IMG/VR virus record: IMGVR_UViG_3300015610_000614
Location: 35,694 to 99,693 of that record
Strand: one strand, 5' to 3'
Source of the DNA: a virus
Lineage: Duplodnaviria > Heunggongvirae > Uroviricota > Caudoviricetes
Length of the DNA: 64,000 bases
The translations under genes were made by a program, and so were the position numbers. Below, one piece after another: positions 2,924 through 64,000 of this stretch (position 1 is the stretch's first letter; the number at the start of each line of letters is the position of its first letter). The notes below the pieces were generated by a model, which worked only from the letters and a program-made list of their open reading frames with translations, was not told where the DNA came from and did not search any database.

Positions 2924-2925
2924 TA

Positions 2926-2987: not shown

Positions 2988-3016
2988 TTGACATGTATTA
3001 GGTCCCGTGCTATAAT
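2988..3016 (+). promoter_or_regulatory. Consensus sigma70 promoter (TTGACA, 17-bp spacer, TATAAT)
   Basis: ttgaca at 2988-2993, tataat at 3011-3016, 17-nt spacer. Confidence 0.7.
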
Positions 3017-3044
3017 AGCTACAATTATAAATTTGTACATAAAA

Positions 3045-3521
3045 ATGGCAAAGAATACAGGAATGAAGCGTATCCCTGTAAAATGGATACGTGATAGGGC
3101 TAAGAGCGCATATGAAAAGAAGGAAACTTGCCATATCTGCGGAACAAGCCAAGATCTAGAACTACATCATACTCATTCCATAACTCTACTTTTAGAAGAA
3201 TGGATTAAAGTAAAGGGCTACGATATTTCTACGGACGACGGGATAATTGCAGTAAGAGACGAATTTATTGCAGATCACCACTCTGAGTTATACGATCATG
3301 TATATACCCTGTGTAATAAACATCACGTAATGTTACATGCAGTGTATGGAAAAGCTCCAGCTTTAAATTCTGCTAATAAGCAGGTTAAATGGATTGAGAC
3401 TCAAAAAGCAAAGATTAGTGGCGGGCTAGTAGAGGTTCACAACATATTAGACCCTAAAGAAGCTAATAGATTAGTAAAACCTTGTAAAGACGCTTCGTTA
3501 TCTTTTGCGAAGTTCTTATAA
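3045..3521 (+). CDS. HNH homing endonuclease
   Basis: CHICGTSQDLELHHTHS ... CNKHHVMLH (HNH/Zn motifs). The ORF opens at 2916, but the terminator and promoter lie between 2916 and 3045, so I call the start at the ATG at 3045; the exact start is uncertain. Confidence 0.6.
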   Translation: MAKNTGMKRIPVKWIRDRAKSAYEKKETCHICGTSQDLELHHTHSITLLLEEWIKVKGYDISTDDGIIAVRDEFIADHHSELYDHVYTLCNKHHVMLHAVYGKAPALNSANKQVKWIETQKAKISGGLVEVHNILDPKEANRLVKPCKDASLSFAKFL

Positions 3522-3530
3522 GGAGCACTC

Positions 3531-4751
3531 ATGACATGGTATAACCCAGCAACATGGTTCACAAAAGCTAATCCAGCACAAGAATTAATAGCTAGAGGGG
3601 AAGGCCCTCAAATAGCTAGTGACGTACCAATATCTTTTCAAACATCTTTCTATAACCTAGAAACGGTTAATAGAGGCGTCAATATGATAGTTAGCGCATG
3701 TGCTAGCTTAGACTTTGACATTAAAGATATGAAGATGCCGGGCGTAGTACTAGGTACTAGAAAAGCTAGCTTAAATAACTTATTAAATTATAAACCCAAT
3801 CCAAATCAGTCGGCACAGGAATTTAGAACTGCTATATTTACTGATTTAATAATTGAAGGCAATATCTTCATTTATTATGATGGTGTTTATATGTATCACC
3901 TACCTGCGGTAAACGTAAAGGTAATTCCAGATCCTAAAACGTTTGTATCGCACTATTTATATAATGATATAACTCGCTTCTCTCCGAACGAGATTATTCA
4001 TATAAAAGATATAAATACTACCTCAATTTATAGAGGAACCTCAAGGCTACAAGCCGCTGAGCGCAATATACAGATTCTGTATAAAATGCAGTTATTCCAG
4101 GAACAGTTCTTCAAGAATGGGGCCGTTCCTAGTATGATCTTAACTACAGAGAATACTTTAAGCGAGACTGCTAAACAGAAAACTATTCTAGGTTGGTCAA
4201 GACAGTATAATCCAAATTCCGGAGCTAAGAAACCGCTTATCTTAGATAGCGGCATGAAACCTGTAATAGGTATTTCAGCGTCCTTCCAGGAGATGGATTT
4301 TGATACAAGTATCAAGACACATGATACTAAAATTCTAAAAGCGCTTGGTGTACCACCTATTCTTTTAGACGGTGGTAATAACGCAAATATCTCACCTAAT
4401 TTACGTTTATTCTATCTAGAGACAGTAATACCTATTATTACTAAGTTAGTTTCTGGATTTGAACGCTTCTTTGGTTATGATATATCACCGATTACTAGCA
4501 ACGTATCAGCGCTACAGCCGGAATTAAAAGAAATTGCTAGTTATTACACTACTCTGGTCAACGGTGGAGTAATAACACCAAATGAGGCTAGATTAGAGTT
4601 GCGCTATGAAAAAGACACTGATCCAGCTTCTGATAAACTGCGAGTACCTGCTAACATAGCCGGTTCTGCAGCAGACCCAAGTCAGGGTGGGGCTCCTAAA
4701 AAGCCACAAACTGAACCAAAACCCGCAAAGGAGTTTCATGGACAAATATAA
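3531..4751 (+). CDS. Portal protein
   Basis: 406 aa, sits between terminase and protease/capsid, RBS aaggag precedes the ATG. Confidence 0.65.
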   Translation: MTWYNPATWFTKANPAQELIARGEGPQIASDVPISFQTSFYNLETVNRGVNMIVSACASLDFDIKDMKMPGVVLGTRKASLNNLLNYKPNPNQSAQEFRTAIFTDLIIEGNIFIYYDGVYMYHLPAVNVKVIPDPKTFVSHYLYNDITRFSPNEIIHIKDINTTSIYRGTSRLQAAERNIQILYKMQLFQEQFFKNGAVPSMILTTENTLSETAKQKTILGWSRQYNPNSGAKKPLILDSGMKPVIGISASFQEMDFDTSIKTHDTKILKALGVPPILLDGGNNANISPNLRLFYLETVIPIITKLVSGFERFFGYDISPITSNVSALQPELKEIASYYTTLVNGGVITPNEARLELRYEKDTDPASDKLRVPANIAGSAADPSQGGAPKKPQTEPKPAKEFHGQI

Positions 4752-6663: not shown

Positions 6664-6670
6664 TCTAACA

Positions 6671-6698
6671 CTGATGGGACTTCGGTCCCATCTTTTAT
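6671..6698 (+). terminator. Rho-independent terminator after the capsid gene
   Basis: gatgggac ttcg gtcccatc tttt; a second weaker hairpin (taagcat...gtgctta) follows. Confidence 0.75.
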
Positions 6699-6740
6699 AA
6701 GCATTTATTTAAGTGCTTATAAAAGATATAAGGAACAAAT

Positions 6741-7310
6741 ATGGGAAATAGTCTAGTATCTAGATCGCAATATAAAACATATGCAGGAATATCGAGTTCT
6801 AATCAAGATGCTAAGATTGATTCTTTAATTCCTATTGTTAGCGCTTTTGTAAAATCATACTGTCGTAGAACTTTCGTAGACTACTACGATACAGAGAAAA
6901 CTGAATACTTTAGAGGCGGAGACGGCTTCTACCCAAAAGAACTACCAATAGTAGAAGTAACTTCTTTAGAATACTCACTTGACTACGGTAAAACATTCTC
7001 TCCAATGGCGGAGTTTACCGATTACGTTATAGACCAGGAAACTAGCCAGATAGTGCCTGCATCTTCTATCTCATTTACGGAAAGAGTAAACGGGTATAGG
7101 TTAACCTATAAGGGTGGATACGAAAGCATTCCAGAAGATTTAATGGTGGCTGTTTTTGACATGATTACTTATTATATCAAAAATGACTCTGCTATTCACT
7201 CCCCTAAAGTACCTGGCAGTAATACAGTACAGATAGAATATATTTCTAGTAGCTCTTTACCAGCTAATATTAAGAGAGTACTGGATATTTATAAAGATAA
7301 CTGGATATGA
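6741..7310 (+). CDS. Head-tail connector (gp6/gp15-like)
   Basis: 189 aa, immediately after the MCP gene, with a typical N-terminus (ISSSNQDAKIDSLIPIVSAFVKSYCRRTF). Confidence 0.5.
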   Translation: MGNSLVSRSQYKTYAGISSSNQDAKIDSLIPIVSAFVKSYCRRTFVDYYDTEKTEYFRGGDGFYPKELPIVEVTSLEYSLDYGKTFSPMAEFTDYVIDQETSQIVPASSISFTERVNGYRLTYKGGYESIPEDLMVAVFDMITYYIKNDSAIHSPKVPGSNTVQIEYISSSSLPANIKRVLDIYKDNWI

Positions 7311-8800
7311 GCTTCTATACAGCAGATTGGGTTAGGAAATACGTAAAGCAAGAGCACGAGGCTCTTCAAAAACATATTTCAGGTAAAGATAAAGATTTCA
7401 GAAGCTTTATAGACGCGTCACTTCCTTTCAGCCTGTACTTAGATATAGGTGAAATACGTGATAGAATACTTAAGCCTAACACTGCCTTTATAGCAGAACT
7501 AGCTGCCTTACTAAAACTAGACGATCCTAATATTATTATATCTATATTGGATAAAGCCTATGTAGACTTAATTAATAGTTATGCCGATAACCCTAGATTT
7601 AAAAAGATAGACAGTAATGAACTTAAGTCTATTATGGACGAGTTCAATAATGCAGTAGTATCCGGCGCTAATATACAGAGTACTATTACCAAATTCTTTT
7701 CTAATACAATAGTAGTTTCAAATCTATGTGTTAGAAACGTAAGAACTTTCTTGATATTCCCAAAGTTTAATACAGTATCGAATGATTTTGGTAAAAGATT
7801 AAAAGACTTAATTGATTTATCGCCTCTATCTGATTACATCGACGACGAGTTAGGCGACAGTCCTAGAAACATATTTAAGAACTTCTTAAATAAAAACTTT
7901 GGTAAATTACAGAACTTAGGGCATGCGGAAGTAGACGTTATATCTACAACCTCTAAAGAAGTTAAAAGAGGCCTAGTATCTCCTAGACTATTACAGGCAT
8001 TAGTATCGTTACCAAAAGAAACTAAAGTAGAGCCTATAGTTAAAAGATTCTCCAAAGAAACAGGGCAAGCTAATACTAGAATTATTGTGCGAAAAAAATT
8101 CGCAGATTCTAAGATGGTACTAGAGGTTCTTGTTGAATCAGGGTTCATGATAGGAATACCTGAATCCCAGGCCGATAACCTTACTAAGGCACCTTTAGAA
8201 AAGCAATTTAATATTGGGGCTAATCTAACAGCTGCAATTAAAGCGAACCCCAATATTATATTAGATTTAGAAACATCTAAATCTATAAAGCAATACGCAG
8301 CAGAGGCTGTATTAGAGAGCATAAAAACAGGTAGAGTTAAACCCTATACCTCAACTGCAGTAATCGATACTAGTACTAAAATTACTAGAACCAAAACTGT
8401 AGTAACTGCTCCTAAAACAAAAGCTCCGTCGTCTTCTAGAGCACCTAAATTACCTAAACCTCCTTCAGCGTCAGTCGATTTGTCCTCGCTGCTAGTACTA
8501 ATTCAGCATAATATTGCTGCACAAGTAGAAAAGAATATGGGTACTGGAAATAGACATGATGTTCTAAATTATAGAACTGGTAGGTTTGCTAACTCTGTGA
8601 AAATAGAGAAACTTACTCAATCTAAAGAAGGTATGATCTCTGCTTTTTATTCGTATATGAAGTATCCGTACGCTACGTTCTCAGAGGGCGGTCGTCAACA
8701 GTATCCGCGTTCGCGTGATCCTAAGACGCTAATATCTAAATCAATTAAAGAAATCGCTGCAGAAAAGGTAGCAGCAAGAATGCGAGCTGTCCTAGTATGA
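7307..8800 (+). CDS. Hypothetical virion (neck/decoration?) protein
   Basis: 497 aa ORF, translationally coupled within the head-tail joining region. Confidence 0.35.
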   Translation: MSFYTADWVRKYVKQEHEALQKHISGKDKDFRSFIDASLPFSLYLDIGEIRDRILKPNTAFIAELAALLKLDDPNIIISILDKAYVDLINSYADNPRFKKIDSNELKSIMDEFNNAVVSGANIQSTITKFFSNTIVVSNLCVRNVRTFLIFPKFNTVSNDFGKRLKDLIDLSPLSDYIDDELGDSPRNIFKNFLNKNFGKLQNLGHAEVDVISTTSKEVKRGLVSPRLLQALVSLPKETKVEPIVKRFSKETGQANTRIIVRKKFADSKMVLEVLVESGFMIGIPESQADNLTKAPLEKQFNIGANLTAAIKANPNIILDLETSKSIKQYAAEAVLESIKTGRVKPYTSTAVIDTSTKITRTKTVVTAPKTKAPSSSRAPKLPKPPSASVDLSSLLVLIQHNIAAQVEKNMGTGNRHDVLNYRTGRFANSVKIEKLTQSKEGMISAFYSYMKYPYATFSEGGRQQYPRSRDPKTLISKSIKEIAAEKVAARMRAVLV

Positions 8801-9237
8801 GTAAACGTCAAAGTATTCTAAAAGCTTTAACTGATAAGCTTAAAACAATAGATGGAACTGGTTCTTTTAAAACTAATTTAAACGGGAATGCCTTCCCATT
8901 TATTAATTACTGGGATCAGGTTTCGGATTTCCCTTGTATTTATAGTACTTGTGGTCAAGAAACTAGAGAATACCACCCATCTAACTTTGCTTGGGGCTAC
9001 ATAAATGTAGTCTTAAAGCTGTATACGCATGGTGAAGATTGTACAGATCAACTGGAAAATCTTCTAACAGACGTAGAACAAGTAGTGAATGCTAATAGGA
9101 CATTAGTGTTCGATTCTGAAACAAATTCAACAATTACTGAAATGTTAGTAACGTCTATAATTACTGATGAAGGTGTAATGAACCCTTATGGTATAGGCGA
9201 GATAATGCTTCAGGTACGCTATCCACTTATAATGTGA
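8797..9237 (+). CDS. Hypothetical tail completion/terminator-like protein
   Basis: 146 aa, coupled ORF just upstream of the tail tube gene. Confidence 0.35.
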   Translation: MSKRQSILKALTDKLKTIDGTGSFKTNLNGNAFPFINYWDQVSDFPCIYSTCGQETREYHPSNFAWGYINVVLKLYTHGEDCTDQLENLLTDVEQVVNANRTLVFDSETNSTITEMLVTSIITDEGVMNPYGIGEIMLQVRYPLIM

Positions 9238-9310
9238 TTTAAGTCCTATAGGTACAGAAAGATAAATGTCAATCTAAGCCTAGACAGACTTTGCCAACCA
9301 GGAGAAATCT

Positions 9311-10762
9311 ATGGCAATTAACTTAAGTCGTAATACAAAGGTATACTTCACTACTAACGTGAACCAAAATACCGGCGTATTAACAGATGCTACTACTGGC
9401 TTCACTGCGGCAAACCTTATCGAAATCGGTGTTCTAGACGGATATTCATTCTCTCAAGGTACGCAGCAACAAACCATCACCATCTCTGAAGGTGGTAACA
9501 CTCCAGTTCGTGGTCAACGTTCGATCAATACGCAAGTTGATCCTGTTGATTGGAGTTTCTCAACTTATATTCGCCCGTATAATAACGCTTCTACCATTGC
9601 TCCGCAAGAGCGTGTACTATGGAACGCTATGTTAGGTGCAGGTGCAGTAGATACCACGGGTACTACTCCTACCACAATCAGTCGCGCAAATACTACCAGC
9701 CCTACCGCTAGTATCGTTGTAGCCTCTCCTATTACTGCTGTTGTTAATGGTAGTACCGCTCCTTTAGCTGTAAATGACGTGCTAAATATCGGTGGTATCA
9801 TTGCAGCTAACCAATCTACCTGGAACCAGCCTGGTGTAATCACCGCTGTTGCTGGTGCCGGTCCTACTACCTATACTGTAGAGCTATCACGTGCCCCAGC
9901 TGCTGCAGCCGGTACTACTGCTACTGTAGGTTCAGGTAAAGTATACGTAGGTCAATGGGCTACTGGTCCTAGTGGGGGTAACTCTGCTCTTGGTCAGTTC
10001 TCTTATGTGTCTACTATGGCATCTAACAAGAACTTGATGCAACGTTTCGGCCTAATCTTCGTTGTTGACAGCGCAGTTTACGGTATTGATAACTGCTTCA
10101 TCGATCAGGTAAGCGTAGACTTCGGTCTAGATGCTATTGCTACCGCAGCATGGTCTGGTAAGGGTACTCAGCTAAAACAGATGACCGCATCTGGCCTAGC
10201 CTCCGCCCTAGCTGCAACTGCAACTGCTAACCCAAGTTCAGCCCCTTACATTACTAATAAGCTATCTACTATGAAGCTTGATAGTAACATTGGTGGTGGT
10301 GACTACGCCGGCTCTACTGCATACGTTGTAGCTATTACTGGTGGTAATATTACCATTGCTAATAACGTTAACTATCTAGTACCTGCTAACCTTGGTGTTA
10401 TTAACCAAGCTATCGGCTACTTCCCAGGTCAGCGTTCTATTACTGGTAACGTAACTGCTTACCTACGCACTGGCGAAACTAACGGTACCGGCGACGTTCT
10501 AAAGAACCTACTAGCTAACATATCTACTGCTATCGAACCTAAGTTCCGCGTACAGCTAGAAATGGGTGGTGCTTCTAACGCTACTCGCGTTGAGTTCGAA
10601 ATGCCTGGCGTTTCGCTACAAGTACCTACTGTAGAAATTCAAGACGTTGTATCTACTACGATTAACTTTAACGCTCAGGCGTTTAACCCTGATACTCAGA
10701 ACTCTCAGACCTTCGATCTAACTAAGGCTAATGAGTTACTAGTTCGTTTCCTAGCTCCTTAA
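9311..10762 (+). CDS. Major tail (tube) protein, T5 pb6-like in size
   Basis: 483 aa, T/S/G/A-rich with an Ig-like C-terminal region, strong RBS aggagaaatctATG, followed by a terminator. Confidence 0.6.
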   Translation: MAINLSRNTKVYFTTNVNQNTGVLTDATTGFTAANLIEIGVLDGYSFSQGTQQQTITISEGGNTPVRGQRSINTQVDPVDWSFSTYIRPYNNASTIAPQERVLWNAMLGAGAVDTTGTTPTTISRANTTSPTASIVVASPITAVVNGSTAPLAVNDVLNIGGIIAANQSTWNQPGVITAVAGAGPTTYTVELSRAPAAAAGTTATVGSGKVYVGQWATGPSGGNSALGQFSYVSTMASNKNLMQRFGLIFVVDSAVYGIDNCFIDQVSVDFGLDAIATAAWSGKGTQLKQMTASGLASALAATATANPSSAPYITNKLSTMKLDSNIGGGDYAGSTAYVVAITGGNITIANNVNYLVPANLGVINQAIGYFPGQRSITGNVTAYLRTGETNGTGDVLKNLLANISTAIEPKFRVQLEMGGASNATRVEFEMPGVSLQVPTVEIQDVVSTTINFNAQAFNPDTQNSQTFDLTKANELLVRFLAP

Positions 10763-10775
10763 TCAGAGCTTGTTT

Positions 10776-10811
10776 ATAGAGCGCGGTACGCGCACCGCGC
10801 TCTCTTTTTAA
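10776..10811 (+). terminator. Rho-independent terminator after the tail tube gene
   Basis: agagcgcgg tacgcgca ccgcgctct followed by ctttttaa. Confidence 0.75.
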
Positions 10812-10845
10812 CAAATTCCAATTATTAAAATTAGAGGATACTCTT

Positions 10846-11283
10846 ATGTCAGAACAAATCAAAAAGGTTCCTAGCCTAAAGACTGTAGTAGCTAACCATA
10901 AGACCGCTGAACTAGAATATGCAGGTCTACCGGGTTTCTACGTAACGCTAGCATTTATGACTCGCGATACCATGCTAAAGCTTCGTAAGGATTCTACCAA
11001 GGTTACTTTTAAACCTGGTCAGGGTGCTGTAGAAGAATTTAATCCTGATCTATTCCTAAAAGAATACGTTAAAAGCGCCGTTCTTGGTTGGAGAGGTCTA
11101 AAGTATGAATACATTCAGAACCTAGTACCTACTGATGATGATCTAGATGTACCTGCTGACGCAGAACTAGATTTCAGCATTGAAGAAGCACTATCACTAA
11201 TGAAGGGTAGTACTGATTTTGACACTTGGGTAACTTCTAATGTCAATACTCTATCAAATTTTCAGAAGAACAAGAAAGCCTAA
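10846..11283 (+). CDS. Tail assembly chaperone (G-like)
   Basis: 145 aa acidic protein immediately upstream of the TMP. Confidence 0.5.
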   Translation: MSEQIKKVPSLKTVVANHKTAELEYAGLPGFYVTLAFMTRDTMLKLRKDSTKVTFKPGQGAVEEFNPDLFLKEYVKSAVLGWRGLKYEYIQNLVPTDDDLDVPADAELDFSIEEALSLMKGSTDFDTWVTSNVNTLSNFQKNKKA

Positions 11284-11327
11284 GACGTAAGAAGATTAAG
11301 TCCTTTTGGGAAAATTCCAAAGTAGGT

Positions 11328-11654
11328 ATGACCAAAGAGCAGTACTTAGAAATGTGTGCTGCTCTTGGTTCTGAGCCTAAAGAGGATGAAATACCTGTAG
11401 AATATCATGATCTTGACGAGTTAACGAAATTAGCTTTAATGGTTTATGATGCTTTACAAGATACCAGAGATAATTTTAATAATTGTTATACTGGTAAAAA
11501 CCTAGTAGGATTTCTTGATGTATTTAGCTTATTTGATATAGATACTTGTGATTATAGAGAAGTCTATAATATTATTAAGTATTTGGATTCTTTAAAAATA
11601 GAAGCATCGAGAGATGCAGCAGCAAAAGCTCAAAACAAAAAGCCCCCTGGTTAA
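11328..11654 (+). CDS. Tail assembly chaperone-associated protein (T-like?)
   Basis: 108 aa, in the -1 frame relative to the previous ORF, directly upstream of the TMP. Confidence 0.4.
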   Translation: MTKEQYLEMCAALGSEPKEDEIPVEYHDLDELTKLALMVYDALQDTRDNFNNCYTGKNLVGFLDVFSLFDIDTCDYREVYNIIKYLDSLKIEASRDAAAKAQNKKPPG

Positions 11655-11678
11655 TGCCTCGGGGCTTTTTTCTTTTTG
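11637..11678 (+). terminator. Terminator-like hairpin with a T-run
   Basis: agcccc ... ggggct followed by ttttttcttttt. Confidence 0.5.
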
Positions 11679-11700
11679 TAAGAGTACAAAAAATAACGTC

Positions 11701-11729
11701 TTGACTTTTAATTCCTACAGTGCTATAAT
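11701..11729 (+). promoter_or_regulatory. Consensus sigma70 promoter upstream of the tape measure gene
   Basis: ttgact at 11701-11706, 17-nt spacer, tataat at 11724-11729. Confidence 0.7.
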
Positions 11730-11799
11730 CTGTAGGACGATGCGAACTGCATCCAAATATTTCAATACCTTTCAGGTATTGGTTTAAAAAGAGGTAAGC

Positions 11800-14700
11800 A
11801 TGGCAGGAAACACTATTGAAACAAATCTGCGTCTTAATGCTACTGGTATTAAAGAAGCAACCGAAGACGCCAAGCGTCTAAACTCAGAATTATCGCAAGC
11901 CATAAAGAATGCAGGTAAAGCACGTACTGCAGGACAAACCTCGGCCGTATTAAATGCTAATAACAAAGATAGTCGTGCTAATGAAGGCATGGCTTATTCC
12001 ATTGCCCAGGCTGGTGGTGGTTCTGGTGCTGCTGCGCGTGATTTTGGTAAGCAAGCACGTGGTTTAGGTGGTTTAGTTCACTTATACGCAACATTTGCTG
12101 CTAACCTATTCGCTGTAAGTACTGCATTCACTGCGCTACAGCGTGCTATGGATACTTCTAATATGATCAAAGGCCTTGATCAGTTAGGGGCAGCATCCGG
12201 TAGAAATCTAGGTACACTTGCTAGACAAGTACAAGCAGCTTCAGATGGTGCTATTTCATTACGTGATAGTATGGAAGCTGTAGCGAAAGCAAGCGCAGCC
12301 GGTATGTCTACTACACAAATTACTAGAATGACTGAGGCAGCCAAGAAAGCCTCACAAGCTCTAGGTGTAAATATGGCTGACGCTATTAGTCGTATTACTC
12401 GCGGTATTACTAAGCTAGAACCTGAACTACTAGATGAACTAGGCATTTTAGTACGTGTCGATAAGGCTACACAAGATTATGCTAAGACTGTTGGCAAGTC
12501 AGTTGGCTCACTAACACAGTTTGAAAAACAACAAGCATTCGCAAACGCTGTACTAACAGAAGCTGAACAGAAGTTCGGTAGTATTCAGATTGATAGTAAC
12601 CCATATTCCAAACTACTAGCATCATTCCAGGACTTATCTTTCCAAGGTTTAGAGCTTGTAAATAAAGTTCTAGGTCCTATGGTTAACTATCTTGCACAGA
12701 GTCCTGTAGCACTAACTGCAGCTGTTACTGCGGTAGGTGCTGCACTACTAAAACAAGCTATTCCTGCTATTGGCGCATTTCGTGAAAATGCTAATGCTGC
12801 AGCAGAAGAAGCTCGTAAATTAGCGGTGTACAGAAATAAGGCAGCAGAAGCAGCCCATCAGGCAGAGCTTAAAGCTGTAGCACAACGTGCTGAAGAACTA
12901 GCCGACAGAGAGCTAATGGCTAAGGAAGCAGCGATTGCTAAGCTTGAAAAGCAAAAAGGTGCTCGTAAAGTAGGTAAAACATATGCCCCTATTCTTGAGA
13001 AGAGTGCAGATGAAGTTACCGACGCAGAATTAGCTAAACTACGCAAGGAAGCAGCTATTCAACAGAAGCGTGGTAATGTAGAAGCGGCTAAGGGTTATAA
13101 TGACTTAGCAGCTGCTATAGAGACTTCTAGAACTGCAGAATTAAACTATATTCAAGCTGTAGACAAGAATAAGAAAGCTCTTGCTGACCGCAATAGTTAT
13201 TTCTCTATATCCGGTCAATTGGCTCGTCAGGCCGAGGCAGCTAACCAATCTGCTATTCAAAAGACTATTAAAACACTTGCATCTGAAACTGTATATACAG
13301 AAGGTGTTCGTGCTGCATGGAAGAAGTTAAATACTGAAATCGCAGCAGCCAGATCAGGTCCTAGAATGGTAGATTTTGGCGATGGTCCTGAGCAAGTAAA
13401 GAAGATGACAGCTATGCAAGCTGGCTGGACTAGAATTTCTGGTGCAGTCGGTATTGCTACTGCTGCAGTATCAGCTTTTGCTGGAGCAATAGGTACAGCC
13501 TTTATGGTTGTTGGAGCCTTTGTAGCTGTATTTGAAATACTAGACTCAGTTTTTGGAAAGAATAGTAAAGAACTAGAGATATTTACTAGAAATACTGATG
13601 CCTTAAACGAATCTGCTGCTAATTTAGATAGAACATTGGATGCTATCTACAAGAAAAAACCAGGAGAAGGGTTTAGCGTAGATAGTATAAATGCTATGGC
13701 TACTGCCATGCAGGATCTGTACGAGAATGCGGATAAACTGGCTGATTCTTTTGCTAAAGTTAACTCCAAAGCGTCTGGCTGGGATAAGTTTGTAGATACT
13801 ATGTGGGATTTAGTGGGTAGAGGCTCAGTTGATAAACTAAGAGATTCTATCAGTAAAACTATAACAAGTGCCATTAAGTCAGCTCCGGTAGGTGAAGCCA
13901 GAGACGAATTTAAGAGAACTATAGCAGCTATATATAATGTAGATCCAGAAGATACTAAAGCTATCCAGAAAGTATTTGATAATATCGGTAGTTCAGAAGA
14001 TGCATCTAAATTAGCTAATTCTACTAGCGCGGCTCTTAAGCAGTTAGCCTTAGAACTTAACAATACTGCATCAGTAGCTAAGACTGCTGATGAAGGATTT
14101 AAGAAGATAAATGAATCTTATAGAAACCTAGCTAACTCACTAAGAGATCAAAGCCCATTAACACTACTTGGACAGAATCTAGTAACAGAATCTATTAATA
14201 TCGCTAAGGCTCTAAACGATCCTAAGTTGGCGATAACTGAGCTAGTTAATCTAGTTAAAGATGAGTCTAAACTACGTCTATTACCTGTTGATACTGTTAA
14301 GCAGTTGAAATCTGCACAATTTCAGATTGAACAACTAGCAGTATCTACAGAAGAATTCCAGAAGCAACTAAAAGATGCCGAGGAAGCAAGAGCTAAAATT
14401 GCTAGTATCAATCCGCTAAAACAAAGCGGCCGTGGTCTACAAAGAAATCCTGAATATGATGCTCTTAAAGAGATCATCGCTAAGGGTGATAAAGCTAAAA
14501 TTCAGTTAGATATTAATACTTCTAAATTAACTGAACTTCGTCAAACACTATCCGGTGCTATGGACGAATCATTTAAGCAGGGTGTACGTATTATTACCGA
14601 TAAATTCGTAGAGGCTTCAACCAAAGCGCAGTTAGCGGTATTAAGCTCGATCACTGCCAGGTTCTCAGGTCCTGGTAAATCTGACTTAGAAACCAGTATA

Positions 14701-42959: not shown

Positions 42960-44354
42960 TTACAGCTTTGCACGATCTCGAATCTCGTCGAAGCTGTTCG
43001 TGACTAGTAGCTTACCGTCACGGAATACCTCAACAAGAATAGAGCGATCAGTTTCAGGAGTAGAGAAGTAACCGTAGCTATCTTTAGATAGCACTACACG
43101 ACCCTTCTTGCTAGACTTATTACTAGCAGTAACTGGATCCTTATATACATCATGCCACTCACCGTCAATGCAGATAGCAGAACATTTCATAGCGAATCCT
43201 AAGGTGTCGCGGTTAACATGATCTAGTAGGGCTCCGCCCATACCAAAAGCAATGTTATCAGCGCTCCATTGCAGCGTGTATAGCACATGCAGAATGTTCC
43301 AGATAGACTTAAAGTTAATGCCGTCTCCCCAGATTAGACGTACATGGTTAAGAACCTTGAACCCCTTGTCATTGACAGTGTATCCAAAGTCACTTTCCAG
43401 AATCTCTAGCATCTTAGGTAGCACCTTTTCAGGATCTCCACTATCAGGACGAATTACTAGAGTACCGCCACTAGAGATAACCTGGTCTTTTAGTTCACCA
43501 CCCCAAATACGGCAAGCATGATATATATCATAACTATCGCTGACAACAGCGTAGATCCCACCAGGCTTACTAAAATTAGAAACCATGTTGGCATAAGCGG
43601 ACGATTCCGACTCACGACCCCAGCTAGTAATAGTAGAGTGCTCAGCAGCAGGAATACTAAAACCGACTTCGCTAATAGAAGCGCCATAACTTTCGATAGC
43701 CTTTACAACAGCAACAAAGGTATCCGTACCCTTAAAATTAATAAGGTGTGCCATACCACCAAGAGCAGCAGTTTCATTACTCTTAGCACCACGTGCACCA
43801 AAATCGTGCAACTTAAAATCTAGTAGATTAACGTCACCCGTTACCTCTAGATAATGCTTAATTAGCTTCTTGATCTGACGGCTAAGGGTAGCTACACTGG
43901 AGGGGTACCAAATTGCACGTAGAAGTGCAGTTTCTACCCAAGTCGTAAGCCAAGGCACCTTAGGGTCGGTGTTCTCTACAGTACACAGTACATTACGCAG
44001 AGAAATTACACTACCTTCTGGAGCTGCCTTAATGCTGATTGGGAGAAAACCCCCGTGCTGCTTAACAATATAGTCCCATCCTTCCCGATTGAAAGGCTCA
44101 CCGTGCGCTGTCCAATAGGCATCCGCCAAGGCCACGTCATTTTCAGTGACGGGAGTAAGCAGATAATCTTGAATAAAAGCCTGTAGTCCAAAGAATACTG
44201 CGCCGTCGTCTTCATATCCATACCAGTTATCTGGTGTATTATTACTACGTGCTTCGATATAGCTGTATACGTATTCGGAACCTTCCGGATACTGCTTCCA
44301 CATCGAAACCTTATAGCTATCAGTGTTAAATAGAATGTTATTGATCTTAGACAT
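42960..44354 (-). CDS. nadV: Nicotinamide phosphoribosyltransferase (NadV/Nampt)
   Basis: N-terminus ILFNTDSYKVSMW is characteristic of Nampt; 464 aa. Confidence 0.85.
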   Translation of the reverse strand: MSKINNILFNTDSYKVSMWKQYPEGSEYVYSYIEARSNNTPDNWYGYEDDGAVFFGLQAFIQDYLLTPVTENDVALADAYWTAHGEPFNREGWDYIVKQHGGFLPISIKAAPEGSVISLRNVLCTVENTDPKVPWLTTWVETALLRAIWYPSSVATLSRQIKKLIKHYLEVTGDVNLLDFKLHDFGARGAKSNETAALGGMAHLINFKGTDTFVAVVKAIESYGASISEVGFSIPAAEHSTITSWGRESESSAYANMVSNFSKPGGIYAVVSDSYDIYHACRIWGGELKDQVISSGGTLVIRPDSGDPEKVLPKMLEILESDFGYTVNDKGFKVLNHVRLIWGDGINFKSIWNILHVLYTLQWSADNIAFGMGGALLDHVNRDTLGFAMKCSAICIDGEWHDVYKDPVTASNKSSKKGRVVLSKDSYGYFSTPETDRSILVEVFRDGKLLVTNSFDEIRDRAKL

Positions 44355-44385
44355 ATGAAACTCCTTCTTTATGTCGTTTATTAAA

Positions 44386-44616
44386 TTAACGATCTCGCCA
44401 GAAATCGCCGGTTATGTAACTACTAGTCTCTGGTTGTACTGGACGTAAACCACTTGGATAGTTTACACATACTGTCTGTAAACATACAGGACAAGTGCAT
44501 GACCAGTCTTCGCCATCTCGTAAATTAGACCTAGTCCTGCCGTCGGATTTACTAACTTCTAGTTCTGACTTACAGTGCCTACAAGTTACGCGATAGCGCT
44601 TCTCGGCCTCAGGCAC
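44386..44616 (-). CDS. Zn-ribbon small protein
   Basis: CRHC ... CTCPVC. Confidence 0.35.
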   Translation of the reverse strand: MPEAEKRYRVTCRHCKSELEVSKSDGRTRSNLRDGEDWSCTCPVCLQTVCVNYPSGLRPVQPETSSYITGDFWRDR

Positions 44617-44632
44617 TCCACGAGAAATAACC

Positions 44633-45616
44633 TTAATACCTATACATGCTCCAGTTATTAACTGCTAGGACTGGCTTCACTCCAGTCATTTCTGAAATGA
44701 TTTCTCCGTGGTCATCGTGAAGTCGCATATAATTGATAGCTTCCTCAATAGGCACAAACTTAGCATTAACTGCATCATCCATGCCCTTAACACGTGGGAA
44801 AGTACCGTCCGGATTGGGGTCAATATGAACCAATACTGCTAGAGTGACTTTAGGTACAAAACCACTACTACGGCTAGGATGGTCAAATAGACGCGTAGAC
44901 TTAATAGACCCACGAACTACTTTTTCAGGTACACGAAGATTTGTTTCTTCGTACATTTCACGAATTGCACAATCAATAAAAGTTTCGTACTTTTGTTTAT
45001 GCCCACCAGGTAGTGCCCAGGTACCGTTCTTACGTTCAATCAGCAGAACATGTCCTAGGCAAATAACTACTGCGTCTCCGCAGTTTGCTTGCAAGCAGTC
45101 AGGAAATGGGTAAGATTCAAACTTCTTACGATCGCTGTCGTAATCGAGGTATTCGAGCTGTACAACGGCCGGTAGTAGATGACGATGCGCGTTACGTAGT
45201 TCAGTACCGGATGTTTCGATTGTAGAATCGATATTCTGGTATTTAAACTGCGGGAACCAACGCAGATAGTCGTTGCCTTCCTTAAAATGACCGTATAGCG
45301 TAACATCCGCTTCTACAGTGATTACTTGCTTAATGGTTGCCGCAACGTCGGCCATCCATTGATCGTCACTGTAAAGGTAGTCATTAAGGGGCACTACATT
45401 TACACGGTCTGTGTACTCGGGTCCTAGTGCTTTATAGATAGCGCCTCGGCGTTCATCAAAGGTAAACGGATTCTTAATAGAACGAGCCTTATTTGCACTG
45501 CCTACCAGAATAATAAGTTCGTCAGATACCTCTAGAATTCGCTTCATCAGGAACATATGACCTTCATGAGGTTCAGGAACCTGAAAGCGACCAATCAAAA
45601 TACCAATCTTCTTCAT
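44633..45616 (-). CDS. nadM: Bifunctional NMN adenylyltransferase (NadM) plus Nudix hydrolase
   Basis: GRFQVPEPHEGH (HxGH nucleotidyltransferase). Nudix box GGHKQKYETFIDCAIREMYEETNL. ATG at 45616 with RBS gcaggag; the listed M1 is a TTG. Confidence 0.8.
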   Translation of the reverse strand: MKKIGILIGRFQVPEPHEGHMFLMKRILEVSDELIILVGSANKARSIKNPFTFDERRGAIYKALGPEYTDRVNVVPLNDYLYSDDQWMADVAATIKQVITVEADVTLYGHFKEGNDYLRWFPQFKYQNIDSTIETSGTELRNAHRHLLPAVVQLEYLDYDSDRKKFESYPFPDCLQANCGDAVVICLGHVLLIERKNGTWALPGGHKQKYETFIDCAIREMYEETNLRVPEKVVRGSIKSTRLFDHPSRSSGFVPKVTLAVLVHIDPNPDGTFPRVKGMDDAVNAKFVPIEEAINYMRLHDDHGEIISEMTGVKPVLAVNNWSMYRY

Positions 45617-45642
45617 TTGCAACTCCTGCAAAGTTAATATTT

Positions 45643-59957: not shown

Positions 59958-60641
59958 TTATTCTCCGTAAGTGTTTAGCGCTTCAGTTACGCTAGGGAAA
60001 TGTTCAGCTAGGATGGGTAGTACGCCTGCTGCAACGTCCATGTGTTCTTTTTGAGTGCCACTACCAGGCCCCCGTGCTTGTAGATAGTGAATCCAAGAAC
60101 GAATAGTACCAGCCATATATAGGCGACTCTTGGTAAGGCCTTCTGGTAGAACATTGCGTGCTACCTCTTTAGCAATACCTAATTCAATAGCTTCTTTGTA
60201 TAGATCTTGCGCATTAGTCATTAACGCGTACTGCGCATCATCCCACCATGCGCGAAGACCATCGTCCTCAGTAACAATACTATTCTGACGATTCTTAGTA
60301 TCTTGTAGTCGTGCTTCGCTCTTAACGTACATTTCGCCCATAGCAGCAGGATCAGCATAGCGCTGGCTGAATTCCTGGAACGAGAATGAGCGGTGACGCA
60401 CAATCTGGTGAGCAATAGCACGAGTAGTCTCGATCTCCACAGTCATGCTAGCCATTTCAAACGGCGACCAGTGTTTATGTTTAATTAGGTATGATAGCAA
60501 CTTACCCGAAGTTGCAGTATTCATCTGATTGCTGGGATTACTTACGCGTGCAGCATACGCAATAAATTCATCCGCAGAACCGATACCAGGAATTACAGGG
60601 GCCGTGATGGCCACTAAACGTACTTTAGTTGAAGAAGTCAT
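59958..60641 (-). CDS. thyX: Flavin-dependent thymidylate synthase ThyX
   Basis: RHRSFSFQEFSQRY matches the ThyX RHR-X7-S motif. The ORF opens at 60716; I call the start at the ATG at 60641 (MTSSTKVRLVAITAP). Confidence 0.85.
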   Translation of the reverse strand: MTSSTKVRLVAITAPVIPGIGSADEFIAYAARVSNPSNQMNTATSGKLLSYLIKHKHWSPFEMASMTVEIETTRAIAHQIVRHRSFSFQEFSQRYADPAAMGEMYVKSEARLQDTKNRQNSIVTEDDGLRAWWDDAQYALMTNAQDLYKEAIELGIAKEVARNVLPEGLTKSRLYMAGTIRSWIHYLQARGPGSGTQKEHMDVAAGVLPILAEHFPSVTEALNTYGE

Positions 60642-60996
60642 TAGCGTTAACAGCCTTGTCATCAATCCACAAATTATAATGTGGCTTATTAGGAATAAAT
60701 CGAGTGTACTTAGCACCCCATAGTGCTAGTTGAGCTTTAGTAAATTCAGCCCAATCTTTGCCACTTTGAGCACCACGAGCTGTCCAATAAATAATTTGGT
60801 TGCCCTCGTCGTATAACTTATTAATCTTAGCAATACGATCAACATAAGGCACAGCTTTAGTATAGTCCCCGTGAGTATTAGTACAAATAGTTCCGTCAAT
60901 ATCTACATAGTAGACTAAAGATGGAACTACTTCAGGCAATTCCACTTGAGTGGAAATTGCCTGCAATTGTTGCACTTGAGGATCACTTGACAGCAT
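60625..60996 (-). CDS. HAD-family phosphatase (T5 Dmp-like 5'-deoxynucleotidase, or GmhB-like)
   Basis: YYVDIDGTIC (DxDGT motif I) ... KPHYNLWIDDK (motif IV). Confidence 0.55.
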   Translation of the reverse strand: MLSSDPQVQQLQAISTQVELPEVVPSLVYYVDIDGTICTNTHGDYTKAVPYVDRIAKINKLYDEGNQIIYWTARGAQSGKDWAEFTKAQLALWGAKYTRFIPNKPHYNLWIDDKAVNANDFFN

Positions 60997-61639
60997 GCTG
61001 TACTACCGGCATTAGCCAGAACATAGAAATTAGATATTGGTGAATATCAGGCACATAGTCCATGCTAATAGGCAGCTTGATAGTCTTGCCCTCTTCGAAA
61101 CGACGAGTTACTAGCTGAGTACCAATGCGCTTGTTATACACATCTTCCTTAGCGCAGTAAGCTACAGCCACTTCAATAGTACGACAATCACCGCCCTTTA
61201 CACCACGACGCCAACCAATAGTTACACCGCCTTCGGTACCCTTATGGTAGATAAAAGTAATACCTGGGGTGGGTTTATTAATTTTACCAATAAGTGCAGG
61301 GGTAGTAGACTCTGCCTCAGCAAACTTTTTAAGTGTATCACTACTAAAAGTTCGGCCAGAGCTAGGTAGCTGGGTATCAGTAATATTACGACCCATTAGG
61401 TTAAGTAGAGCAGACATTCTCTTACCCTTCCTACGAGAATGCAGAGCAGCCTTATAAGCATTCATGCTACGTAGATATTCTTGTAGCTTTTCAACAGCCT
61501 CTGTCTGACTACGTGCTTCTACAGTAAACATACTGCGCTTACCGTTATTATCTAGATATTCTACCTTGTACGGCTTAGATACTACAGGAGTAGCCGAGTA
61601 TCCATATCGGAATGAATCTGCAAAGGTATTCTTTTTCAT
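60983..61639 (-). CDS. Hypothetical protein
   Basis: 218 aa ORF. Confidence 0.3.
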   Translation of the reverse strand: MKKNTFADSFRYGYSATPVVSKPYKVEYLDNNGKRSMFTVEARSQTEAVEKLQEYLRSMNAYKAALHSRRKGKRMSALLNLMGRNITDTQLPSSGRTFSSDTLKKFAEAESTTPALIGKINKPTPGITFIYHKGTEGGVTIGWRRGVKGGDCRTIEVAVAYCAKEDVYNKRIGTQLVTRRFEEGKTIKLPISMDYVPDIHQYLISMFWLMPVVQHAVK

Positions 61640-61666
61640 AATTATTTATTAAGTTAGTAAGACTAA

Positions 61667-61695
61667 ATTATATTTCAATTTAGTACTTAAATCAA
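61667..61695 (-). promoter_or_regulatory. Promoter (TTGATT, 17-bp spacer, TATAAT)
   Basis: Minus-strand -35 at 61690-61695 and -10 at 61667-61672. Confidence 0.5.
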
Positions 61696-61705
61696 GACGA
61701 TATTT

Positions 61706-62176
61706 TTAAGCCTCGATAGTTGGAAATCCGTTAGCCTGTTTTTGCGAATCACCTGGCATTACTCGATAGTTGTCTTCGACGCTATCAGGGGTAGATACCT
61801 CGATAATAGTACCTGCTTCTAGACATACTAGCTGATGTGGTAGCAGTGGCGGATTATGCCAAACCATACCTGGAGTTAGTTCAGTAGTACGTACAAACGC
61901 ATCGTCAGTATTAATATGTAGAACACGGAATCGCCCGTTCAATACGTACCAAGTCTCATCTTTTACTGCGTGAAAGTGCATAGAAAACTTTGCACCCTCA
62001 TTAAAGTGCATTAGTTTACCGCAGTATTTATCGTTACTAGCCCAGATTTCTTCAGAGCCCCAGCCTTTATTAATTTTTCCGTGTAAACGTGTCATGTCGT
62101 TGTAGTAATGAATTAATTTCGTTAGTATGCGGAGCGTAACATCCATAATGTTGAACACTAACCGCGGCTGTAGCAT
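61706..62176 (-). CDS. Cupin-fold sugar-phosphate isomerase-like protein (type II PMI C-terminal domain-like)
   Basis: MHFHAVKDETWYVLNGRF...PGMVWHNPPLLPHQL...GTIIEVSTPD fits the cupin PMI pattern. The listed M1 is TTG; ATG candidates are at 62176, 62146 and 62095. Confidence 0.45.
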   Translation of the reverse strand: MLQPRLVFNIMDVTLRILTKLIHYYNDMTRLHGKINKGWGSEEIWASNDKYCGKLMHFNEGAKFSMHFHAVKDETWYVLNGRFRVLHINTDDAFVRTTELTPGMVWHNPPLLPHQLVCLEAGTIIEVSTPDSVEDNYRVMPGDSQKQANGFPTIEA

Positions 62177-62957
62177 TAGCAAAAGCTAACGCCTTATTAA
62201 TATCTTTTGTTTCCAGATAGTTGATTACTAAACCACTCAGGAAGGCATCGCCAGCACCACAAGTATCTAATACTGGTACATCATAGCCAGCATGTAAATC
62301 CCCTGCATAAAATGCACCCATGGAACCCATAGTAACAATCAAACTGGTTCTAGGTAGGTTTACCAAACTATCTGCTTCTGATTTATTTATCTTCACAAAA
62401 CCGTAGGTAATCATACTTAGGTCCCTACGCTTAGTATCAATAAATAGAGGAATACTATGTTGTTTAGCTAAACTACAAATAGCTTTTATATCTTCGTCAG
62501 TAAGAAAGCCCTTGCAATAATCACTAATAACAATAGCACTTATACTACTTATAGCAGGCATGCTAGCAAGACTGAACTTGGTTTTAGCCTCCTTATCATA
62601 ATCGATTCTAAATGCGTATTCGGAAATCATAGTAGTAATCTCACCTAACATGAAGCGTACTTTTAAGCACATTTCATCCGGGTTAGTAGTAAGATCTAGT
62701 ACTTTATATGTAGAAGGTACCGGCCCCTGCAACATCTTACGCATAGTTGCCACAACGTTGGCTGCCATGCCTGGTTTATCATCTACTTTCGCATTGTTAT
62801 TTACAACAAAAGCCGGTACATCTTTTTCTAGATTCTTTTTTGAAAATACTTGTATGTATTTATCAATGCAGGCATCCCCTATAACTAGGATGGTTGATTG
62901 TTGCCGTTGTGGATAGCGAATCTTTTTCCACAAATTTGATATCAGAGCAGTATTCAC
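62070..62957 (-). CDS. D-glycero-beta-D-manno-heptose-7-phosphate kinase (HldE domain I homolog, pfkB family)
   Basis: ILVIGDACIDKY, KPGMAANVV, VISDYCKGFL, PLFIDTKRRD, VLDTCGAGDAFLSGLV, FANATAAVSV all align with E. coli HldE kinase motifs. GTG start at 62957 overlaps the upstream gene by 95 nt; there is no ATG before GMAAN. Confidence 0.75.
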   Translation of the reverse strand: MNTALISNLWKKIRYPQRQQSTILVIGDACIDKYIQVFSKKNLEKDVPAFVVNNNAKVDDKPGMAANVVATMRKMLQGPVPSTYKVLDLTTNPDEMCLKVRFMLGEITTMISEYAFRIDYDKEAKTKFSLASMPAISSISAIVISDYCKGFLTDEDIKAICSLAKQHSIPLFIDTKRRDLSMITYGFVKINKSEADSLVNLPRTSLIVTMGSMGAFYAGDLHAGYDVPVLDTCGAGDAFLSGLVINYLETKDINKALAFANATAAVSVQHYGCYAPHTNEINSLLQRHDTFTRKN

Positions 62958-63279
62958 TTCCTACAATCCTTTTATTCTTATATTCATCACCTTTTACCAT
63001 AATAGGATAATCTAAGTCCTTTATGATAGCGATTAACTCTTCTTCAGAATCAAATTCTACAACCATATCTACGTAGCGTATAGCCTCAAGTACTTTTCTA
63101 CGATTATACGAATTATTAATTGGTCGATTGGCGCCCTTTAAAGTTTTTACACGCGAATCAGTATCAATAGCAACAATAAGTTTATTACCCAAACTGCGAG
63201 CATATTCCAGTAGTCTCACGTGTCCGCGGTGTATCACATCGTACACCCCATTACTTATTATTATTCTACTATTGTCCAT
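62863..63279 (-). CDS. D-glycero-beta-D-manno-heptose-1-phosphate adenylyltransferase (HldE domain II homolog)
   Basis: NGVYDVIHRGHV (HxGH), LIVAIDTDSRVKTLKGANRPIN, VKGDEYK and STT align almost colinearly with HldE residues about 340-470. Confidence 0.8.
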   Translation of the reverse strand: MDNSRIIISNGVYDVIHRGHVRLLEYARSLGNKLIVAIDTDSRVKTLKGANRPINNSYNRRKVLEAIRYVDMVVEFDSEEELIAIIKDLDYPIMVKGDEYKNKRIVGSEYCSDIKFVEKDSLSTTATINHPSYRGCLH

Positions 63280-63992
63280 TTTTTATAAGAGTTGTTTTTA
63301 CCATATTTGCCTAATCGCATTTGTCCTATGCAAAATGCCGAAGAATCTATATTAGAAGCAAATTCTGGTATACTTTTGCAGAATTCTTTTATAGATGTGG
63401 ATACGTGAAACTCTGCCCCCTCTGGTGATAAGAGTTTAAATGGTTTAATTCGGCTTAACGCTTTACCTCTTTTTAGCTCACTTTGCTGTATAGCTATGCT
63501 AAACTCATCTGGGTATTCATCCTTAAGCCAGTGGTGGGCTCTACCAGAAAGTATCGTTTTTACTAGAGATTCGGGTACTTTACATCGTAGAGCTGCCTCT
63601 TTTCTGAACATATTATATTTATATAAACATACTAGTACTTTCAATATAGTAAATCTGGAATGTTTAGAATGGGAGGAAGAGGTTCCTCGGCCACATATAC
63701 CAGCATCAATAATATTATATCCGTTCTTTATGGAATCAAATTCCTTCATATAGTATTCTTCTAGTACTAGAAGTTTATCAGTACTAGTAAGTTCTAGTAT
63801 TTCTAATTTTGGTAGCTCACCAGATATATTGTACTTGTCAGTTAATTTAAAATTAGTATGTCTATTTTTAGACAGATCCCTACAGTGCGTTTTATACCTT
63901 CTATGTATATCCTGGGATTGCCCTATATAAACCCTGTCATCATCTTCCCAGTGTAACAAATAAATACCACAGTGCATAGAAAAATTCCCCAT
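63261..63992 (-). CDS. GIY-YIG homing endonuclease
   Basis: MHCGIYLLHWEDDDRVYIGQSQDIHRRYKTH. The listed M1 is TTG; ATG candidates are at 63992 and 63977. Confidence 0.65.
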   Translation of the reverse strand: MGNFSMHCGIYLLHWEDDDRVYIGQSQDIHRRYKTHCRDLSKNRHTNFKLTDKYNISGELPKLEILELTSTDKLLVLEEYYMKEFDSIKNGYNIIDAGICGRGTSSSHSKHSRFTILKVLVCLYKYNMFRKEAALRCKVPESLVKTILSGRAHHWLKDEYPDEFSIAIQQSELKRGKALSRIKPFKLLSPEGAEFHVSTSIKEFCKSIPEFASNIDSSAFCIGQMRLGKYGKNNSYKKWTIVE

Positions 63993-64000
63993 TTCCAAAT

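Follow-up and report, generated by a model that had tools for sequence, protein, structure and literature searches.

The DNA analysed here, a stretch of 64,000 nucleotides from IMG/VR virus record IMGVR_UViG_3300015610_000614 (the window), is part of the genome of a T5-like siphovirus of about 99.7 kb that is represented by metagenomic sequence only. T5-like hallmarks of this genome include a T5-type small terminase and A2, dNMPase and nicking-endonuclease domains, and its major capsid protein shares 33-38% identity with the counterparts in Vibrio T5-like phages. At one end of the window lies a minus-strand group of genes for a nucleotidyltransferase (NT), a PfkB-family kinase, a metal-binding cupin and a small HAD-family protein (mini-HAD), which we refer to as the module and discuss as a probable phage route to nucleotide-activated heptose. 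Read inward from the window end, the genes follow one another in the order GIY-YIG, NT, kinase, cupin, a 218-residue open reading frame (ORF), HAD and ThyX:

63261-63998, minus strand: GIY-YIG endonuclease (group I intron endonuclease family), adjoining the NT gene on its upstream side
62863-63279, minus strand: nucleotidyltransferase of 138 residues, like HldE domain II and HldC, with an ATG start (matches in Pfam, NCBIfam, PHROG and the PDB)
62070-62957, minus strand: PfkB kinase of 295 residues, like HldE domain I, with a GTG start (matches in Pfam, NCBIfam and PHROG)
62863-62957, minus strand: predicted dual-coding overlap of the NT C terminus and the kinase N terminus, with frames offset by +1
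61706-62095, minus strand: metal-binding mono-cupin of 129 residues, with its ATG at 62095 (the listed ORF spans 61706-62182)
60983-61639, minus strand: ORF of 218 residues (ORF call), a lineage-specific insert between cupin and HAD
60625-60996, minus strand: mini-HAD of 123 residues, putative phosphatase (phrog_1238, PDB 9iqw, motifs)
59958-60716, minus strand: ThyX, adjoining the HAD end of the module

An earlier note on this DNA had set out the ORFs, motifs and coordinates of the module, and all are present as it gave them, on the minus strand. We used protein-level searches to place the genes because Megablast of the module region against GenBank phages returned zero matches.

Profile searches place the NT and the kinase closest to the two halves of the bacterial enzyme HldE, as the earlier note had proposed from aligned motifs. 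The NT matches Pfam CTP_transf_like (PF01467; 2.8e-15) and phrog_7878 (3.6e-37), and its best NCBIfam model is rfaE_dom_II (TIGR02199; 4.7e-32, 110.8 bits), compared with 68.3 bits for TagD (glycerol-3-phosphate cytidylyltransferase). Its closest solved structure is Burkholderia HldC (5x9q; 66 bits), with the same motif alignment as in the earlier note, and its HRGH and C-terminal STT motifs occur in the window sequence and in all 62 distinct homologues. The kinase matches Pfam PfkB (PF00294; 4.6e-18) and phrog_8133 (1.4e-54) and keeps the invariant GD of the N-terminal strand and the DTK, NxxE and GAGD motifs of the family alignment. Its best NCBIfam model is rfaE_dom_I (TIGR02198; 1.8e-25, 89.7 bits), compared with 50.7 bits for ribokinase, and only the rfaE/HldE models cover residues 12-182, the N-terminal, sugar-binding half, whereas the alignments of other PfkB models are confined to the C-terminal, ATP-binding third. 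The E-values of both proteins lie far beyond chance level. Because both scores fall well under the NCBI equivalog cut-offs, HldE is by these comparisons the closest family rather than a certified assignment, and we designate the NT a putative heptose-1-phosphate adenylyltransferase and the kinase a putative heptose-7-phosphate 1-kinase.

The two genes do not form a single HldE-type polypeptide, in which the kinase is N-terminal and the NT C-terminal; they are separate, reversed in order and overlapping in the +1 frame. With the kinase GTG at 62957 as start, which is preceded by AAGGA at 9-nt spacing, the overlap measures 95 nt, the length given in the earlier note; at least 29 nt are certain, because the ILVIGD core of the kinase starts at 62891 and thereby precedes the NT stop (62863-62865). 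We surveyed 77 loci that carry both NT and kinase (62 distinct sequences); in 73 of the 77 the reading frame of the kinase is offset by +1 from that of the NT. The NT stop lies mostly 17-32 nt inside the hhhhGDxCxD core of the kinase, and in 11 loci 1 nt before it. Among the 62 distinct loci the overlap is 8-98 nt long (median 56), and the kinase start, ATG in 49 and GTG in 13, is always upstream of the conserved core. A conserved STT...I...R motif of the NT is encoded inside the overlap and extends to the NT's own stop. The alignments thus identify the junction as a conserved, predicted dual-coding region with independent initiation. For a kinase that has no ATG in the window, the earlier note had allowed either a GTG start or a frameshift fusion with the NT; the GTG start stands, and the fusion is rejected because the kinase has its own ATG or GTG start in 62 of 62 distinct loci and the NT motif is complete to its stop.

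The cupin is the most conserved of the four proteins. Gene callers and more than 100 homologues agree on its ATG at 62095. The protein scores above the cut-off of Pfam MannoseP_isomer (PF01050; 25.4 bits versus 23.6) and of Cupin_2, matches phrog_7851 (5.9e-40) and retains the metal-binding motifs HxH...E...H, which bears out its earlier description as a cupin of the phosphomannose isomerase (PMI) type. Its family consists of mono-cupins of 118-129 residues with invariant KGWGxE, H40xH42, E47, H87 and EVSTxDSxEDNxR; homologues number more than 4000, the top 120 being 65-95% identical. An AlphaFold model shows a cupin barrel (mean predicted local distance difference test score 84.6), fold searches did not separate isomerases from other cupins, and no close sequence or structural relative was found among characterised isomerases. 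Between the window and the T4-like, pelagimyophage-like and T5-like contigs compared, cupin identity is 64-77%, against 30-36% for the kinase, 41-49% for the NT and 55-59% for the HAD; the exception is the cupin of cyanophage S-CAM1, which is only 41% identical to that of the window. For an accessory gene of a phage, so high a degree of conservation is unusual.

A scan of 185,579 species, one genome each, found the cupin in only six. Five of the six contigs are short contigs of metagenome-assembled genomes (MAGs), four of them with homologues of the NT, the kinase and the epimerase. The sixth is a 357-kb contig of a Ca. Comchoanobacterales MAG (locus L263, JBMHDW010000001.1), whose cupin is 61% identical to that of the window and is part of an overlapping operon (L263:2888-5952) that reads HldE (fused, 321.5 bits), HldD (229.7), cupin and GmhB (134), and that accounts for all steps of the ADP-L,D-heptose pathway except that of GmhA. 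The contig also has a Dot/Icm DotD gene, 3 kb downstream of this operon. An exhaustive search of 1.84 billion representatives with a cupin profile returned 1350 cluster representatives at E<=1e-10. Cluster representatives P0359, P0360 and P0412 are fusions of a HAD with the cupin and P0423 is a fusion of an NT with the cupin, and P0356 joins an NT5C-type HAD (weak match) to it; P0360 has an additional C-terminal part of about 250 residues with no match.

These contexts bear on which protein could supply the isomerase step. An E. coli GmhA sequence, used as a probe only, retrieved a 97% identical match; it matched 13 phage records, none carrying the module, and had no match in the window, the six cupin genome loci or a set of 180 loci (1.65 Mb). 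The candidate isomerase is a cupin and not a protein with the SIS domain of GmhA. T5-like genomes, moreover, retain the cupin with no short-chain dehydrogenase/reductase (SDR) nearby. Together, the bacterial operon, the fusions, the absence of GmhA and the SDR-independent retention make it the best reading of the gene context that the cupin is a candidate sedoheptulose-7-phosphate isomerase in place of GmhA, a replacement which the earlier note had suggested and which the operon gap, the fusions and synteny now support, in each case indirectly. A different division of labour would have the NT, kinase and HAD make ADP-heptose from heptose-7-phosphate provided by the GmhA of the host, with the cupin tailoring the nucleotide sugar, as a metal-dependent epimerase of the CapF/WbuC kind, or serving some other role. 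We judge this rather unlikely: a tailoring cupin would not be expected to fill the sole vacant step of the bacterial operon, to persist where no SDR is near or to be fused to HAD and NT, which act before nucleotide-sugar tailoring, and a SIS isomerase appeared in no phage locus searched with the GmhA probe. Marine Synechococcus lipopolysaccharide (LPS) is reportedly without heptose, which makes a host supply doubtful for the cyanophage relatives.

The mini-HAD carries DIDGT, T72, K104 and DD112-113, and the DxDGT, T, K and DD positions are invariant in the alignment. The earlier note had correctly picked out DxDGT, but had called the protein GmhB-like, and here the assignment changes: the GmhB and HAD-IIIA models (TIGR00213, PRK08942) gave no match at E<=0.01. 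The protein instead matches phrog_1238 (4.9e-29) and, weakly, the NCBIfam models BT0820 (8.2e-5) and EcbF-BcbF (2e-4), and the closest PDB entries by sequence are 9iqw ('capsule biosynthesis protein'; 2e-9) and 1xpj (9e-4). It shares 42-50% identity with its cyanophage homologues, 44-50% with those labelled 'phosphoheptose isomerase', and 34-40% identity, at E-values down to 2e-10, with mini-HADs of RB69-like, JS10, Acinetobacter and Serratia LC53 T-even phages. In homology, in its four catalytic motifs and in being a capless member of a family of about 100-135 residues, it agrees with mini-HADs of the AfhF type. In RB69-like phages, AfhF strips the 5-phosphate of arabinose-1,5-bisphosphate en route to UDP-arabinose (PMC13326640). 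We accordingly place the HAD, from its sequence matches, in the AfhF/9iqw/1xpj/EcbF mini-HAD family and not with GmhB, and by analogy with AfhF we call it a putative heptose-1,7-bisphosphate 7-phosphatase. In all T5-like relatives the gene is found just upstream of thyX. The HAD gene is also where assemblies diverge: over about 10.4 kb at this window end, the window and contig NODE_59 differ at a total of 32 positions in 10,417 nt, all bunched in 150 nt of the HAD gene (window 60798-60946, codons ~17-66). The patch leaves the catalytic residues untouched, and a third assembly, k141_1179593, stops exactly at its start.

The module is widespread in metagenomic phage sequence. IMG/VR holds at least 584 kinase loci, and in a synteny sample of 80 of them (+/-6 kb) the NT is near the kinase in 76 and the cupin in 72; this clustering of NT, kinase and cupin is near-invariant, all sampled contexts agree, and the metagenomic contexts include T4-like and pelagimyophage-like contigs. 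Among GenBank phages, kinase homologues (31 records) and cupin homologues (35) are confined to cyanomyophages and to marine single-virus genomes. The cluster of S-CAM1 and S-CAM3 comprises an NT, an overlapping kinase, a 107-residue 'phosphoheptose isomerase', a 117-residue 'cysteine dioxygenase' and a nucleotide-sugar epimerase. PHROG and NCBIfam matches and alignment identify the 'phosphoheptose isomerase' as the mini-HAD and the 'cysteine dioxygenase' as the cupin, and on this evidence the two RefSeq labels do not suit the folds. Heptose-related LPS genes have been listed as cyanophage auxiliary genes in a genome announcement (PMC7378029), and rfaE is listed in a pelagimyophage study (PMC7029224); the literature searched held no functional study of phage heptose genes. 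The pathway is thus already in phage annotation, though uncharacterised and partly mislabelled, contrary to the earlier note, whose author knew of no description of it as a phage function. In the T5-like carrier lineage the module is previously unremarked. Gene order in the module is variable, with cupin-NT-kinase-epimerase and NT-cupin-kinase arrangements on three short contigs (L260, L262 and L264) that were assigned to MAGs of Chitinophagales, Caulobacter and Phycisphaerales. The module genes on them are of the phage type, namely split NT and kinase and the cupin, joined on two contigs by the epimerase, and the contigs may be phage DNA placed in the wrong bin.

Further neighbours of the module point to heptose as the sugar. 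At 59 of the 80 kinase loci there is, within 6 kb, an SDR that is a homologue of the S-CAM1 epimerase, and the S-CAM1 protein scores 188.5 bits with TIGR02197 (ADP-glyceromanno-heptose 6-epimerase) and 34.7 with GalE. In S-CAM1 a GT9-like protein with weak matches to heptosyltransferase III/RfaQ is encoded upstream of the module, and its homologues are near 16 of the 80 loci. A kinase of the PfkB type, unlike the GHMP-type HddA, goes with the beta-anomer and the ADP-linked heptose route, and the kinase of the module would therefore do the same. The core of the nucleotide-heptose pathway proposed in the earlier note is supported by an NT and a kinase closest to HldE, an epimerase-like SDR at most of the sampled loci and the recurrence of GT9.

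The same reaction logic could, however, serve another sugar, leading from fructose-6-phosphate through mannose-6-phosphate to ADP- or CDP-mannose or, after the model of UDP-arabinose synthesis in RB69-like phages, to an activated pentose. The cupin matches the C-terminal family of PMI, whose known reaction converts fructose-6-phosphate to mannose-6-phosphate, arabinosylating phages have a homologous mini-HAD (PMC13326640), and both NT and kinase score under the HldE cut-offs. We nevertheless hold a hexose or pentose to be improbable. HldD-like 6-epimerases, which accompany the module at those 59 loci and in L263, have C6 of a heptose as their site of action and would be left with no substrate; GT9 is a family of ADP-heptose-dependent glycosyltransferases and recurs with the module; and bona fide HldE and GmhB stand beside the cupin in the bacterial operon.

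A likely consumer of the product is encoded elsewhere in the genome of the window. The earlier note had advised looking for a glycosyltransferase (GT) just past the window end; no GT family match was found among the window ORFs or within 10 kb past that end, but a GT9-like gene lies past the opposite one. It can be assigned to the same genome because window 1-12291 is 100% identical to contig NODE_59 (locus L016), in which a 419-residue tetratricopeptide repeat (TPR) protein is encoded 1.1-2.4 kb left of window position 1 and is followed by an FkbM-family methyltransferase gene (L016:6611-8597 including FkbM), both between the small and large terminase genes. The C-terminal 290 residues of the TPR protein contain the GT9-like motifs EQGxGD and D-T/S-x-x-x-H-x-x-G-x-x-G. 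In structure comparisons, the best matches of the modelled C-terminal domain are the GT9 heptosyltransferases WaaC, WaaF and TibC, which have the GT-B fold, with scores of 14.2 for WaaF, 14.1 for TibC and 13.6 for another GT9 protein, and the next GT-B protein, UDP-GlcNAc 2-epimerase, scores 11.2. The protein is below the gathering score of Pfam PF01075 (13.8 versus 22 bits). Of 21 members of its family (TPR-GT), 17 weakly match PF01075 (best 6e-4) and any other family is matched by a single member at most, and a distant homologue is annotated as a TPR-containing glycosyltransferase with PF01075. The TPR domain and the likeness to TibC together suggest a protein as acceptor for this TPR-GT9, which is a guess.

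The TPR-GT family numbers 251 IMG/VR loci and is near-absent from cultured phages, where one weak match was found. Of 80 of its loci, 69 show synteny with the T5-type small terminase and 44 with FkbM. Co-occurrence with the module was verified in the genome of the window and in a second, diverged T5-like genome of 103,964 bp (contig 3300048672), which has both. In L142, L165 and L264, members of the same GT family that have no TPR domain lie 2.5-5 kb from the module. Because the TPR-GT seems commoner than the module, the latter may be an accessory that secures the donor supply of the former.

Taking this evidence together, we consider it probable, with some reserve, that the module is a four-enzyme phage route to nucleotide-activated heptose (ADP-heptose), with a cupin in the place of GmhA, and that it probably feeds the TPR-GT9. 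The cupin would isomerise the ketose to heptose-7-phosphate; the PfkB kinase, homologous to HldE domain I, would phosphorylate C1 of what is presumed to be this substrate; the mini-HAD, by analogy with the action of AfhF on the distal phosphate of arabinose-1,5-bisphosphate, would take off the 7-phosphate; and the NT, homologous to HldE domain II and HldC, would add a nucleotide, presumably AMP. We include the cupin and the HAD in one pathway because of their synteny in hundreds of phage loci, the fusions and the bacterial hldE-hldD-cupin-gmhB operon. Relative to the bacterial route, GmhA and GmhB would each be replaced by a non-orthologous enzyme, and the halves of HldE are separate, reversed and translationally overlapping. 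The probable user of the product is the heptosyltransferase-like TPR-GT9 encoded in this genome, which may heptosylate a protein, plausibly a virion protein, although this acceptor is a guess.

Several observations weigh against this reading. The NT reaches 110.8 of the 181.5 bits of the TIGR02199 equivalog cut-off and the kinase 89.7 of the 345 bits of TIGR02198. Kinase matches in the PDB (phmmer) are ribokinases only, over the C-terminal ATP-binding part; best hits to ribokinase and to glycerol-3-phosphate cytidylyltransferase were what the earlier note had named as refuting it, and half of that outcome appears, only in single-sequence PDB searches, whereas profile models favour HldE. The HAD is near only 26 of the 80 kinase loci, the roughly 85 kb examined of the ~99.7 kb genome yielded no HldD-like gene, and a gmhA elsewhere in the L263 MAG, or one supplied by a host, is conceivable. 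The TPR-GT, finally, looks much commoner in T5-like contigs than the module, and the link between them is not obligatory.

This last imbalance would also suit an ADP-heptose made for purposes other than a phage GT, such as remodelling or upkeep of the host LPS core (for example in superinfection exclusion), glycosylation of phage DNA, or perturbation of host signalling. In published work the homologous genes of cyanophages and pelagiphages are taken to be auxiliary genes related to LPS (PMC7378029, PMC7029224), and in all T5-like relatives the module adjoins thyX among early, nucleotide-metabolism genes. We give such uses little credence, as the genome's own GT9-like enzyme has a TPR domain, typical of protein recognition. 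DNA hypermodification, a candidate raised by the thyX adjacency and the AfhF-like HAD, was rejected: neither a hydroxymethylase nor a DNA glycosyltransferase was detected, the score of ThyX is that of a canonical equivalog, and the GT is a GT9 with a TPR domain. Returning to a route that ends at the TPR-GT9, a broader version of it is possible though doubtful, in which aquatic phages of several lineages would have a self-sufficient ADP-heptose pathway with a cupin isomerase and a mini-HAD 7-phosphatase, both foreign to the textbook route of bacteria, here feeding the TPR-GT9 and an FkbM O-methyltransferase so that virion proteins are given heptose or methyl-heptose.

Comparison with known systems shows how the proposed route is related to each. 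The bacterial ADP-L-glycero-beta-D-manno-heptose pathway (GmhA, HldE or HldA/HldC, GmhB, HldD) has the same proposed reaction order, its HldE domains are homologous to the NT and kinase, and split kinase and NT genes already exist there, as in Burkholderia HldA/HldC (PDB 5x9q). The phage module differs in placing the NT before the kinase with a conserved +1-frame overlap, in having a cupin for the SIS-type GmhA and a mini-HAD of 100-120 residues for the HAD-IIIA GmhB, in the lack of an HldD in the part of the genome examined and in scores under the equivalog cut-offs. The 'LPS/heptose' cluster of cyanomyophages and pelagimyophages (S-CAM1, S-CAM3, P-SSM2, S-SSM7, SynMITS9220M01 and others) is closer, with homologues of all four proteins (kinase 27-37%, NT 37-45%, HAD 44-50% and cupin 32-41% identity) and the same NT/kinase overlap; here, by contrast, the carrier is a T5-like siphovirus, the module is beside thyX with no adjacent epimerase, and a TPR-GT9 is in the terminase region. 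The UDP-arabinose pathway of RB69-like phages (isomerase, AfhE, AfhF; 5-hydroxycytosine arabinosylation; PMC13326640) follows the same logic of isomerase, 1-kinase, distal phosphatase and nucleotidyltransferase, with a homologous mini-HAD and an NT that precedes the kinase, but concerns another sugar, has a SIS isomerase and a fused kinase/NT of unrelated folds (APH-like, MurU-like), and delivers its product onto DNA. Compared with the GT9 heptosyltransferases WaaC, WaaF and TibC, the phage protein has an N-terminal TPR domain and a sub-threshold Pfam score. Cupin aldose-ketose isomerases (type II PMI, archaeal cupin phosphoglucose isomerase and D-lyxose isomerase) share with the phage cupin a small metal-binding cupin with HxH...E...H, and the type II PMI reaction from fructose-6-phosphate to mannose-6-phosphate would be the hexose analogue of that from sedoheptulose-7-phosphate to manno-heptose-7-phosphate.

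Other genes of the region are recorded here as observations in their own right. The 218-residue ORF at 60983-61639 had no match in Pfam, NCBIfam or PHROG; it is 91% identical in the closest relative (L005) and partial in L178, and in other T5-like relatives Metallophos-like or other genes occupy its place. Homing-endonuclease-like genes beyond the one next to the NT include a GIY-YIG gene after the large terminase (2291-2923) and a 434-residue Vsr/DUF559-like ORF between FkbM and the large terminase (window 1-930, minus strand), which runs off the window start. A single 658-residue ORF at window 4687-6663 matches both prohead protease (Peptidase_S78) and major capsid protein, and a record look-up for ORF 600-914 of the window was empty. 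At window 42960-45631 a nicotinamide phosphoribosyltransferase (phrog_448, 1.4e-161) adjoins a 332-residue ORF, and in this block one ORF matches CTP_transf_like and one NUDIX; by these matches the block most simply holds an NMN adenylyltransferase/Nudix candidate partner for NAD+ salvage. Upstream of the module, past the window end, are genes for a TROVE/Ro60-like protein of 441 residues (L003:1833-3158) and a HAD_SAK_2 protein of 177 residues (L003:8142-8675), the former also kept in the T5-like relatives L005, L008 and L178; their family matches suggest a function in RNA repair or quality control.

If the proposed role of the cupin is true, it would be a non-orthologous replacement of GmhA with a family as wide as the 1350 cluster representatives recovered; no cupin-type sedoheptulose-7-phosphate isomerase family was found in the literature searched. 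Two recurrent mislabels in phage genomes, 'cysteine dioxygenase' and 'phosphoheptose isomerase', would then be corrected. The 'LPS genes' of marine phages have been annotated for more than 20 years and are still unexplained, and a donor pathway together with a phage GT9 offers them a concrete purpose, pointing to heptosylation as a possible modification of virions or host surfaces. Because ADP-heptose is an agonist of innate immunity in animals, its production driven by phages could also matter in host-associated settings.

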